In this document: positions 22,421 through 24,953 of the stretch, piece by piece | Layout: each line of letters opens with the position of its first letter | How positions within the stretch are numbered: the stretch's first letter is position 1 | DNA from: Candidatus Nomurabacteria bacterium | Lineage (GTDB): Bacteria > Patescibacteriota > Minisyncoccia > Phycocordibacterales > UBA9973 | Direction: 5' to 3' | Length of the DNA: 64,000 bases | Assembly: GCA_020631955.1 (NCBI GenBank) | Contig: JACKGL010000002.1 | Location: 77,860-141,859, forward strand | The notes under the pieces: model-generated | Told to the model about the DNA's origin: nothing | Database searches by the model: none | Seen by the model: the letters and a program-made list of their open reading frames with translations, nothing else | Translations under genes and position numbers: made by a program

Positions 22421-22457
22421 ATAAAATCAAGGAGCAGTATTTTGCTCCTTGATTTTA
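22421..22457 (-). terminator. intrinsic terminator
   Basis: AAATCAAGGAGCA-(6 nt)-TGCTCCTTGATTT overlapping the stop codon of 22455..22682. Confidence 0.7.
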
Positions 22458-22682
22458 CTTAGTATTCTTGGGTGGGTTTTCTGGTGTCACGCTCGGGTCT
22501 TTTTCATAATCCTCTCTCGATTTACCTGGTGTCTGAGGTGTAGTCTTTGTGTCTGGGTCTCCTTCTTCACTATCTAGACCTTCACTACTTTTCTCTTCTT
22601 TGTTTTCTTCTTCATCACCTTTTTCTTTTTTTGTTTTTTTTGGGTCTTGGTTATGAACCCAAAAATAGTCTGGATATTCCAT
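22455..22682 (-). CDS. hypothetical low-complexity K/E/P-rich protein (75 aa)
   Basis: ORF with its own terminator; no motif recognised. Confidence 0.35.
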   Translation of the reverse strand: MEYPDYFWVHNQDPKKTKKEKGDEEENKEEKSSEGLDSEEGDPDTKTTPQTPGKSREDYEKDPSVTPENPPKNTK

Positions 22683-22708: not shown

Positions 22709-22732
22709 TGTGCGGGTAGGGAGAATCGAACT
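22709..22732 (-). repeat. orphan copy of the tRNA-Gly 3' end (att-like direct repeat)
   Basis: tgtgcgggtagggagaatcgaact is identical over 24 nt to 23313-23336. That segment comprises the last 22 nt of tRNA-Gly(GCC) plus 2 flanking nt. Confidence 0.9.
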
Positions 22733-22740
22733 AATTTATA

Positions 22741-23283
22741 CTAGTGTCGAAGTTGTGTCTTCACCGCTTTAAATAATCCGTAACAGCAAATTAAAGCTGA
22801 AATTATTTGTAACATAGCAAAAATCAGTTCCCCTTTCCAGTAAGTTGAAATTGATGTGGAAATATGCGCTACAAAAAACAATATCCATCCGTATATATTC
22901 TGTTTTCTTGCCAAAAGATAACCACCCCAAATAAATGATAGAGCTGAAGTTGCCTCAATTAAGGTAAGGTAGCTTACAAAGAGTGAGGCCGTAAGAATAA
23001 GTGAGATAACTGTGAGTAAAATATTTGTTTGGATAGTTAATTTATTTCGATCAACGTTGTAATTAATAAATCCATAAATCATAACTACTAGAAATCCTAT
23101 TTCAGCAATCGCTAGAATGTGAAGATTAATGATAAAAAAGTAGACCGAACTACTTAATCCAACAAGTACTCCCCAAAACCACCCAGAACGTTTATTCAAT
23201 ACTAAAAACAACTTATTAAAAATACTGAACATTGAGACAGGGATTGAAAGAAAAAATAGATAATCCATGGAATAATTATACAC
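22741..23283 (-). CDS. PnuC-like nicotinamide riboside/NMN transporter family membrane protein (tentative)
   Basis: 180 aa with about six TM helices. LNKRSGWFWG and LLARKQNIYGWILFFV resemble the duplicated K/R-x-x-W motifs of PnuC. Assigned by eye only. Confidence 0.5.
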   Translation of the reverse strand: MYNYSMDYLFFLSIPVSMFSIFNKLFLVLNKRSGWFWGVLVGLSSSVYFFIINLHILAIAEIGFLVVMIYGFINYNVDRNKLTIQTNILLTVISLILTASLFVSYLTLIEATSALSFIWGGYLLARKQNIYGWILFFVAHISTSISTYWKGELIFAMLQIISALICCYGLFKAVKTQLRH

Positions 23284-23314
23284 AAAAAATCCTCTAAAGT
23301 AGCTTATTTATCTG

Positions 23315-23385
23315 TGCGGGTAGGGAGAATCGAACTCCCGACTCATCCTTGGCAAGGACGTGTTCTACCACTAAACCATACCCGC
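23315..23385 (-). tRNA. tRNA-Gly (anticodon GCC)
   Basis: GCGGGTA TG GTTT AGTGGTA GAAC A CGTCC TTGCCAA GGATG AGTC GGGAG TTCGATT CTCCC TACCCGC A. Full cloverleaf, 71 nt, no encoded CCA. Confidence 0.95.
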
Positions 23386-23389
23386 GTAT

Positions 23390-23665
23390 TTAACTTTTAT
23401 AATCCCATGGGAACTTCCCATCTAATATAACTTTCTCAATTACATCTTTCCTTTTATACTTTTTCAGTCTATGCTCGTATCTTCTAGCGTCAGTAATGTT
23501 ATCACAATTCAAAAAAATTTTCAGCTCCCACGGAATATTTCCTTTTGTTGAAAACACCTTTCCAGAATTGTGCTCTTTCAACCTTCTATCAATATCTATT
23601 GTACTACCAATATAATATCTACTATTTTTTACACTTTTTATAATATATACTCCAGTCATAACCAC
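23390..23665 (-). CDS. small GIY-YIG nuclease family protein (YhbQ/UPF0213-like)
   Basis: GVYIIKSVKNSRYYIGSTIDIDRRLKEHNSGK gives the GIY...YIG, R and E/N motifs. GTG at 23665 or ATG at 23659. The stop lies 4 nt from the tRNA-Gly 5' end. Confidence 0.85.
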   Translation of the reverse strand: MVMTGVYIIKSVKNSRYYIGSTIDIDRRLKEHNSGKVFSTKGNIPWELKIFLNCDNITDARRYEHRLKKYKRKDVIEKVILDGKFPWDYKS

Positions 23666-23713
23666 TAAACTCCGACCTGTGTCGGAGTCCGACTATGGTC
23701 GGACCATACCCGC
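23661..23713 (-). pseudogene. tRNA-Gly 5' fragment (nt 1-20) split by a 33-nt twin-hairpin insert
   Basis: Minus strand: GCGGGTATGGT + CCGACCATAGTCGGACTCCGACACAGGTCGGAG + TTTAGTGGT. The flanking parts equal nt 1-11 and 12-20 of the intact tRNA at 23315-23385. Confidence 0.85.
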
Positions 23714-23763
23714 TTTTTATAAAATTGTATCTATCTGAAAATATCAGATACTGTCGGGGTGCT

Positions 23764-24830: not shown

Positions 24831-24901
24831 GCGGGTATAGTTTAGTGGTAGAATGTCTGCCTTCCAAGCAGAACACGGGAGTTCGATTCTCCCTACCCGC
24901 A
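24831..24901 (+). tRNA. tRNA-Gly (anticodon TCC)
   Basis: GCGGGTA TA GTTT AGTGGTA GAAT G TCTGC CTTCCAA GCAGA ACAC GGGAG TTCGATT CTCCC TACCCGC A. 71 nt, no encoded CCA. Confidence 0.95.
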
Positions 24902-24953
24902 CTAAAAATAAGAATATTTTCTTAACCTTTATTATTTCTTTTTTGAGTTTCAC

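Follow-up and report, generated by a model that had tools for sequence, protein, structure and literature searches.

The tRNA-Gly(GCC) locus and its nuclease

The subject here is a tRNA-Gly(GCC) gene and the small GIY-YIG nuclease gene directly upstream of it, in a 64,000-nt stretch of a Candidatus Nomurabacteria contig (JACKGL010000002.1, positions 77,860–141,859; hereafter the window). Coordinates are those of this 64-kb stretch, and the gene order at the locus is read on the minus strand. It begins with tRNA-Arg, a YraN/UPF0102 gene, a pseudo-copy of tRNA-Pro, an intact tRNA-Pro(TGG) and a partial 5' copy of tRNA-Gly (the stub) that holds a twin hairpin. The stub is followed by the GIY-YIG gene, the intact tRNA-Gly(GCC), a PnuC-like gene, a 24-nt copy of the tRNA-Gly 3' end, an open reading frame (ORF) of 75 codons and PIN-PhoH (Table 1). 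The nuclease ORF fills the whole space between stub and tRNA, its stop lying 4 nt short of tRNA-Gly(GCC), as an initial annotation of the stretch had described. The split 5' copy reported there is also present, with small corrections: it comprises tRNA nt 1–19 rather than 1–20, and is split after nt 10 (ambiguous by one T) by an insert of 34 rather than 33 nt. Sequence identical to the locus occurs in many wastewater assemblies, and all 18 contigs of the locus population are mutually identical.

The predicted nuclease matches the Pfam GIY-YIG family (PF01541) with 54.6 bits, well over the cut-off of 22.6 (E 1.4e-14), and among 19 homologs the catalytic residues Y16, R26, H30 and E62 are invariant and Y5 nearly so. 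Among solved structures, BH0048 and EF2693 of UPF0213 come closest by sequence, with Slx1 and I-TevI next (match to 1zg2, E 8e-8). An AlphaFold model (pLDDT 92) gives as its top Foldseek matches 1zg2 (UPF0213 BH0048), Slx1 (7cq3), the catalytic domain of I-TevI (1ln0) and UvrC (1yd6), and superimposes on the Slx1 nuclease domain (7cq3) with an rmsd of 1.5 Å over 71 columns. Judging from sequence and model, the protein looks like an active GIY-YIG enzyme. Its family is of modest size (179 clusters at 50% identity, E <= 1e-10). Both the protein family and the twin hairpin are absent from the viral contigs searched, and a phage origin was dropped for that reason. A defence system was likewise rejected, the defence-system and phage libraries giving weak domain-level matches only. 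There is no Rfam intron match, and the nuclease ORF lies outside any self-splicing intron or intein.

A contig from a sister species (L170), with a PhoH that is 84% identical, shows the same order of YraN, tRNA-Pro, stub, hairpins, ORF and tRNA-Gly. Both tRNAs and the stub are 100% identical to those of the window, all hairpin stem bases are the same (only three loop bases differ), and the spacer before the stub retains 94.7% identity, while the nuclease ORF is down to 69% at the nucleotide and 63% at the protein level. Since stub and stems have stayed identical beside a nuclease so changed, sequence comparison indicates that stub and hairpins are old and maintained, and that the ORF is the fastest-changing segment. 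Farther PhoH relatives (L171/L172, 64% identical) have no tRNAs nearby and synteny is lost; a scan of GTDB genomes anchored on PIN-PhoH returned only ~40%-identical proteins from unrelated phyla, with no synteny information.

Table 1. Features at and around the tRNA-Gly(GCC) locus, in window coordinates
Feature	Position	Strand	Remarks
tRNA-Gly(TCC)	24831–24902	plus	
tRNA-Arg	24701–24630	minus	
YraN/UPF0102 nuclease-like gene	start between 24473 and 24374, stop codon 23993–23991	minus	Pfam 74 bits
tRNA-Pro 5' pseudo-copy, ORF-less	23945–23860	minus	33 nt upstream of intact tRNA-Pro
tRNA-Pro(TGG), intact	23826–23754	minus	
Spacer between tRNA-Pro and stub	23714–23753	minus	36 of 38 bases identical in sister species L170
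tRNA-Gly 5' stub, nt 1–10	23713–23704	minus	reads GCGGGTATGG; directly after the conserved spacer
Twin hairpin, 34 nt	23703–23670	minus	reads TCCGACCATAGTCGGA then CTCCGACACAGGTCGGAG
Hairpin 1, (G)TCCGAC-CATA-GTCGGA(C)	23703–23688	minus	
Hairpin 2, CTCCGAC-ACAG-GTCGGAG	23687–23670	minus	
tRNA-Gly 5' stub, nt 11–19	23669–23661	minus	reads TTTAGTGGT; nuclease ATG one base further
GIY-YIG nuclease gene, 89 aa	23659–23390	minus	catalytic domain only; UPF0213/Slx1-like branch
tRNA-Gly(GCC), intact	23385–23315 (23314/5–23385)	minus	ARAGORN and Rfam, 69.6 bits
PnuC-like membrane protein gene	23268–22741	minus	175 aa from ATG at 23268; frame open up to GTG at 23283
24-nt copy of tRNA-Gly 3' end	22732–22709	minus	tRNA nt 52–73 (T-stem/T-loop to discriminator base) plus 2 flanking bases
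75-aa ORF, lysine/glutamate-rich	22455–22682	minus	low-complexity; no family match
Perfect 15-bp inverted repeat, 6-nt loop	22422–22457		between 75-aa ORF and PhoH

Recurrence of the cassette and its twin hairpin

Relatives 47–65% identical to the window nuclease were gathered from public assemblies and from a metagenome scan, which was built on 12 sequences and gave 80 loci. The tRNA context was counted over 72 distinct proteins, the hairpin and stub context over 63 unique loci. An intact tRNA gene on the same strand lies no more than 200 nt downstream of 58 of the 72 homologs, usually 0–25 nt past the stop codon, and more than 20 anticodons are found in this position (for Gly, Ala, Val, Thr, Ile, Lys, Phe, Asn, Arg, His, Asp, Leu and Met). 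On the upstream side, one or more CCGAC-N3-8-GTCGG hairpins occur within ~130 nt of the ORF at 59 of the 63 loci; at 48 the adjacent tRNA is copied there exactly over 8 nt or more, in most cases from tRNA nt 1 onward. The short upstream stretches hold 132 copies of the hairpin motif. The other ~290 kb of the loci hold 61, many of them directly behind an ORF or a tRNA. The arrangement in the window is a member of a recurrent cassette family, not a one-off scar, and the cassette occurs in uncultivated bacteria of the Nomurabacteria type. The association of GIY-YIG gene and tRNA is thus real and a family-wide rule, which agrees with the nuclease-driven insertion that the initial annotation had thought plausible.

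At several loci (L121, L135/L136, L139, L119 and L127) the twin hairpin and ORF stand just behind a protein-coding gene, with no tRNA within 200 nt. This subgroup identifies the pair of hairpin and ORF as the constant core of the cassette, and the association with tRNA genes as a strong preference that is not absolute. Tandem arrangements were also seen: the stub and ORF are duplicated in tandem in L164 (2420–2816), three hairpin units are spaced 43 nt apart in L095 (260–390), and L094 (1350–1733) carries five tandem 72-nt units, each a tRNA-like 5' part with a GTCCGAC-AGCG-GTCGGAC hairpin in place of the anticodon arm.

The hairpins are closely alike. A consensus of GTCCGAC-CATA-GTCGGAC-TCCGAC-ACAAG-GTCGGAG is shared by 44 distinct twins, and the window copy conforms to it. 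All stems are 7 bp long and have the invariant core CCGA/TCGG, which was set by the search pattern. The outer two stem pairs, which lie outside that pattern, covary: 42 cells are changed on both sides, compared with 12.6 in shuffles (0 of 500 reach 42), and 98.8% of the outer-pair cells in this set are paired. Over 137 hairpins, 97% of the 959 stem pairs are Watson-Crick. Some hairpins sit, at recurrent positions, inside the loop of another (L102, L126, L109, L132), and within stubs the position of hairpins varies, after nt 4, 7, 10 or 13, or in the D-loop after G19. Nesting and the several stub positions together suggest that the hairpin unit is itself inserted as a block.

With such regularity, it is very improbable that the tRNA fragments are mere leftovers of old duplications and the hairpins random palindromes. 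It is true that tRNA clusters accumulate partial duplicates, and that the ORF-less tRNA-Pro pseudo-copy has diverged strongly between the two species (44% identity). Yet the hairpin motif is found twice in the window, adjacent and with 0 mismatches, where 0.39 copies are expected, no chance match to the 24-nt repeat described below is expected at all, and the architecture, which shows covarying stems and is conserved across species, recurs at 59 of 63 independent loci. The initial annotation took the 5' fragment for a scar, and allowed that such fragments might instead prove to be part of a conserved functional RNA. In part it is this second view that holds: with the stub and stems identical in the sister species, and hairpins with covarying outer pairs at 59 of 63 loci, the 5' fragment and its twin hairpin belong to a conserved element and are no passive scar.

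Whether that element acts as RNA is another matter. Stub and hairpins might form a structured 5' leader that masks the ribosome-binding site, or an autoregulatory operator, keeping a dangerous nuclease at a low level, with the tRNA pieces incidental. The twin does keep a single polarity relative to the ORF (CNNA in loop 1; ACAAG, TTAG or TCTG in loop 2), the leader folds more stably than shuffles (z = -3.4), and at 36 of 61 loci a GGAG or GGGA of the last hairpin's 3' arm ends 7–15 nt before the ATG, usually with no other purine-rich motif between. We consider this explanation rather unlikely, however. Mismatches on the ORF-sense strand of the 137 hairpins are G.U in 12 cases and C.A in 11; the equal rarity of the two gives no sign of a constraint on the sense RNA only, and points to one at the DNA level. 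In addition, twin hairpins also occur downstream of tRNAs and at ORF-less sites, hairpins are nested in hairpin loops, the first hairpin of the twin is too distant from the start codon, and the tRNA duplications would be left unexplained. Masking of the ribosome-binding site as the sole role of the hairpins was rejected, as it fits ~60% of loci and neither the first hairpin nor the downstream copies. Folding of the single leader sequence prefers a nested alternative, both stems being identical, and is no guide to the structure. Among the Rfam 15 covariance models, only the intact tRNAs match in the window; stub and hairpins give no match there at E <= 1, nor do those of seven related loci at E <= 0.1. 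Weak matches to 'Plastid' and miRNA models were rejected as spurious, being caused by tRNAs or by a probable terminator.

The nuclease gene has moved among tRNA genes. Pairs of ORFs with 71–84% identity stand beside different tRNAs (Phe/Asn 76%, Gly-CCC/Thr-TGT 72%, Lys/His 77%, Val-TAC/Val-GAC 84%), which makes them closer to each other than the window nuclease is to its counterpart at the same locus in L170. The stub, where found, copies the local tRNA of its own locus (Lys and His, both Val loci, Phe and Thr-TGT); in the two remaining loci, Asn and Gly-CCC, no exact block of at least 8 nt of the adjacent tRNA was found. The 92% identity of loci L097 and L105 is confined to a stretch that starts with tRNA nt 1 in the stub and ends near nt 19 of the following tRNA copy; no other alignable flank was found. 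L109 and L113 differ solely by one decayed copy of tRNA-Lys, which lies between the units of a 28-nt direct repeat (6 flanking bases plus tRNA nt 1–22), and are otherwise 100% identical; this shows that loss or gain between such repeats happens within populations.

Outer tRNA pieces, the 24-nt repeat and the PnuC-like gene

At four loci (L115, L117, L118, L125) a second twin hairpin stands behind the intact tRNA, followed by the 3' two-thirds of another tRNA-Gly(CCC), and the hairpin pairs flank the cassette as direct repeats. The stub of L118, L125 and L103 begins with 7 nt that are perfectly complementary to the acceptor strand of the downstream 3' piece, and not to the inner tRNA. When the outer pieces of L118 and L125 are joined in silico, ARAGORN calls a canonical tRNA-Gly(CCC). 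Between loci, the outer 3' pieces are 87–98% identical, the ORFs 81–86% and the inner tRNAs 67–93%. Conservation is higher in the outer pieces than in the inner tRNAs, opposite to what simple vertical descent would give, and this suggests different cassettes, each with its own spare tRNA, within a conserved host gene. The junction of the cassette lies in the T-loop at several loci (L089, L103), and a 3' tRNA piece is present at ~8–10 of the 49 loci with enough downstream sequence. L093 has a single kinase-like gene (180 aa) behind the inner tRNA and, beyond this gene, a remnant of the outer 3' end (CGCAC) flanked by hairpins, the same layout as that of the PnuC-like gene in the window. In L147 and L169, 18-nt duplications of the 3' end (T-loop to end) surround 103–184 nt of hairpin-rich non-coding DNA.

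The corresponding repeat in the window, TGTGCGGGTAGGGAGAATCGAACT, is perfect (24/24) at 22709–22732 and 23313–23336, with none expected in shuffles, and the duplication of 22 nt of the tRNA-Gly(GCC) 3' end plus 2 flanking nt, reported in the initial annotation, was reproduced exactly. The 3' end of tRNA-Gly(TCC) (24880–24903) provides a third copy, which has one mismatch. As the 22 tRNA bases fit both Gly tRNAs, only the 2 flanking bases favor the GCC gene as the source. The two tRNAs have their last 22 nt and 18 of the first 19 nt in common, making tRNA-Gly(TCC) a possible partner for gene conversion with tRNA-Gly(GCC).

The 580 nt between the perfect repeats hold a single ORF (22741–23268/23283), again as the annotation had it. 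The profile search proposed there, with Pfam NMN_transporter (PF04973), gave 28.7 bits against a cut-off of 27.3 (E 1.5e-6, profile positions 7–172 of 175). The protein has no NCBIfam match; one identical to it is named 'nicotinamide mononucleotide transporter' by NCBI. L170 lacks the PnuC-like gene, and no remnant of the 24-mer of 8 nt or longer is present there. Its tRNA-Gly is separated by 5.9 kb of unrelated genes from the conserved C-terminus of a small ORF before PhoH, so that the segment downstream of tRNA-Gly is wholly different in the two species (~0.8 kb vs ~5.9 kb) and the PnuC segment with its repeat is species-specific.

Two readings of the repeat have to be weighed. The first is a sharper version of the cassette explanation set out below, not its opposite: the stub (23713–23661) and the 24-nt 3' piece (22732–22709) would be the two ends of a single ancestral outer tRNA-Gly, split by a cassette of hairpins, nuclease gene, spare tRNA-Gly and PnuC-like gene. 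Such an architecture does exist in L118, L125 and L103, where the joined outer pieces are called as a tRNA; the kinase-like gene of L093 is laid out in the same way as the PnuC-like gene; and ~8–10 of 49 loci carry a 3' piece. For the window itself this remains a tentative possibility, somewhat short of an even chance. The sister species has stub, hairpins, ORF and tRNA, yet neither 3' piece (>=8 nt) nor PnuC-like gene. The middle of the supposed outer tRNA (nt 20–51) is missing, no hairpin accompanies the 3' piece, and its 24/24 identity to the inner tRNA, including the 2 flanking bases, suggests a recent local duplication or gene conversion.

The second is that of a classical tRNA island, for which the initial annotation had noted the attL–island–attR geometry, lacking an integrase. 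A site-specific recombinase would have inserted a small element at the 3' end of tRNA-Gly, duplicating a 24-nt core, and would since have been lost or act in trans. The geometry is as described: the repeat is perfect and extends from the T-stem/T-loop to just beyond the 3' end, and the complete difference of the downstream segment between the window species and L170 marks it as a replacement hot spot. We nevertheless regard an island as unlikely. No recombinase or integrase is found in the 580-nt segment or among the genes called in the surrounding ~21-kb locus (L001/L002), composition is unremarkable, and the 18-nt duplications of L147 and L169, which enclose only 103–184 nt of non-coding DNA, are not predicted by an integrase model. 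PnuC-like homologs (56–62% identical) occur in ordinary, varied chromosomal contexts without such repeats, and PnuC was rejected as a mobile cargo family on this ground. A tRNA-Gln gene lies upstream in two of three distinct contexts of these homologs (145 nt and 1.6 kb away), without repeats. Because duplications of the 3' end recur at nuclease-family loci, the 24-nt repeat needs no integrase. It is best read as a duplication of the tRNA from T-loop to 3' end, as at those other loci, and the PnuC-like gene as ordinary cargo or a neighbor rather than a mobile function.

The remaining features of the locus touch the cassette less directly. The tRNA-Pro pseudo-copy consists of three collinear exact blocks (nt 1–10 with 2 flanking bases, 11–29 and 35–47), interrupted by a CCTGCC-AAA-GGCAGG hairpin and other inserts; the hairpin sits after nt 10, just as the twin does in the Gly stub. 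In L170 the interior of the pseudo-copy is only 44% identical, while both flanks are 100% identical. A second hairpin type, CC(Y)GCC-N3-6-GGC(R)GG, accompanies other tRNA pieces, the pseudo-copy being one example. It was seen at L096/L099 (2216–2245), L117 (1240–1269), L147 (739), L109 (999), L152 (562) and L169 (2114), is sometimes twinned with a 15-nt period, and often lies within or beside partial tRNA copies, at a density not clearly above that of GC-rich control loci. The YraN/UPF0102 gene lies inside the tRNA cluster in both species, its start being called variously among assemblies (127–153 aa); a link to the nuclease cassette is not established. Conservation of the 75-aa ORF is limited to its C-terminal 22 residues, 14 of which are matched in the 113/131-aa ORF that precedes PhoH in L170. 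The inverted repeat behind it is probably a terminator, and the source of the spurious weak Rfam matches. Several independent metagenome contigs of the same population (L006, L008, L013, L016) begin or stop within tRNA-Gly(GCC), at 23342–23375, which may reflect strain heterogeneity or an assembly break induced by the repeat.

A probable homing-type cassette and its known counterparts

The architecture recurs across the family, its hairpins are under constraint, its ORF has moved among tRNA species, and insertions or deletions bounded by tRNA-derived repeats occur. In its anatomy, a nuclease gene with its polar twin hairpin is lodged in a tRNA gene, the 5' stub being what remains of the interrupted or duplicated tRNA, and the complete tRNA of the same anticodon behind the nuclease gene keeps the cell supplied. 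The explanation that we favor, as a probable though by no means secure one, is a selfish, homing-type nuclease cassette resident in tRNA genes, the mechanism of which we infer as follows. The nuclease would break or nick DNA at tRNA genes or at the hairpins, and repair, with the tRNA-derived direct repeats as homology arms, would copy the cassette to alleles that lack it and, now and then, to a different tRNA gene. Where tRNAs are single-copy, an insertion would survive only if it left or brought a complete tRNA.

Expression could be accommodated in the same scheme. The spacer between tRNA-Pro and the stub presumably carries the promoter that now drives stub, nuclease gene and tRNA-Gly; the stub would keep this tRNA promoter, from which the nuclease gene would be transcribed, and processing of the tRNA that follows would define the 3' end of the mRNA. 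The last hairpin may, in its GGAG, mask a ribosome-binding site. As the cis element of the family, the twin hairpin would most likely be the recognition site of the small nuclease, and by breaking up the direct repeat it may hinder precise loss of the cassette. Slx1 is a structure-specific nuclease, and small GIY-YIG restriction enzymes work as oligomers on palindromes. By analogy with these properties, the palindromic hairpins are a plausible candidate for the substrate or binding site of the nuclease.

Several observations weigh against a homing-type cassette. The nuclease is a stand-alone catalytic domain with no extra DNA-binding module, in which it differs from the characterised homing GIY-YIG enzymes. 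Its ORF is intact in all loci and common to two species at one site; a purely selfish homing gene would be expected to decay quickly, and the protein could have a host function. A target within the tRNA gene would leave the intact tRNA copy cleavable, and immunity would be unaccounted for. At the loci with outer tRNA pieces, the opposite assignment of host and cargo copy is conceivable too. The initial annotation had proposed looking for empty sites in relatives and for further copies of the twin hairpin. No cassette-free tRNA-Gly(GCC) site was found (the 18 population contigs are identical, and L170 carries the cassette too), and the twin hairpin has no further copy in the 64 kb at 0 mismatches, hence no dispersed-repeat behavior in this segment; copies of the family lie at the related loci.

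A bolder version of the homing cassette is a new class of bacterial mobile element, in which a GIY-YIG nuclease reduced to its catalytic domain and its own double-hairpin DNA site colonise tRNA genes. A spare tRNA copy would be brought or created with each insertion, allowing survival in tiny genomes, and the hairpins would be the site of recognition or recombination. This we regard as doubtful, if conceivable; were it true, the element would be a GIY-YIG counterpart of the REP/RAYT or integron attC cassettes.

A cassette of the homing type would explain the partial tRNA copies beside genes annotated as 'GIY-YIG nuclease family protein' in the streamlined genomes of the Candidate Phyla Radiation (CPR). 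It shows that, if a spare copy is kept, a nuclease gene can reside without an intron in RNA genes that are essential and single-copy. It also offers a testable function and substrate (the 34–36-nt double hairpin, or tRNA genes) for the stand-alone GIY-YIG proteins of the UPF0213/Slx1-like branch; structures of these have been available since 2005, and we know of no role for them. In practical terms, the tRNA-derived repeats coincide with contig starts and ends in this population, and could mislead tRNA counts in metagenome-assembled genomes.

Parallels with known systems are partial. The REP/BIME elements with their RAYT proteins, and the integron attC sites, similarly tie a short structured palindrome, often paired, to one enzyme gene, but the enzyme is an HUH protein or a tyrosine recombinase rather than a GIY-YIG protein, for which, to our knowledge, no recombination chemistry is known; also, unlike a REP-type family, the window has no dispersed repeats, only the single twin. 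Islands and prophages targeted to tRNA genes resemble the locus in that a direct repeat of the 3' part of the tRNA bounds the insert, and in that the downstream content differs between relatives. Here, however, there is no integrase and one small gene only, and the 5' end is duplicated too, which is not a product of integrase-type insertion.

According to what is reported by Paquin, Laforest and Lang, insertion of a free-standing homing endonuclease gene in fungal mitochondria brings along a replacement for the gene end and leaves a displaced fragment of the target gene, the functional copy being restored. Double-hairpin elements (DHEs), which are short, potentially mobile repeats of two hairpins, are described from the mitochondrial DNA of chytrids and fission yeast (PMC10085805, PMC2800124). 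These organelle systems differ in having protein or rRNA genes as targets and hairpins of unrelated sequence, with no described fixed pairing of a hairpin family with a nuclease family, nor tRNA genes as a home.

The closest parallels are GIY-YIG genes themselves. SegB of phage T4 is a GIY-YIG homing enzyme that recognises a conserved motif (11 bp) of the tRNA T-loop, and spreads its own gene along with neighboring tRNA genes (PMC2330249). Like the window nuclease it is free-standing (not in an intron) among tRNA genes (PMC2330249), and its T-loop target has an echo in those cassettes with a T-loop junction (L089, L103). In contrast, SegB is a phage enzyme with a DNA-binding part, as opposed to an 89-aa catalytic domain in a cellular chromosome, and its loci have neither partial tRNA duplication nor a hairpin element. 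In CPR bacteria, GIY-YIG ORFs have been described in rRNA-gene insertions that are neither group I nor group II introns (PMC11270868). This case shares the organism group and the presence of small GIY-YIG ORFs within structured-RNA genes, and differs in concerning rRNA genes, with no hairpin element or target duplication and without the term 'tRNA gene' (PMC11270868), the comparison being one of descriptions. In the searchable literature no description of the combined nuclease, twin-hairpin and tRNA-stub architecture was found. As a free-standing GIY-YIG gene of homing type at tRNA genes, the cassette is of a known kind; it is unusual in that its enzyme consists of the domain only, that a double hairpin is dedicated to it, and that a complete tRNA copy follows behind the tRNA stub.

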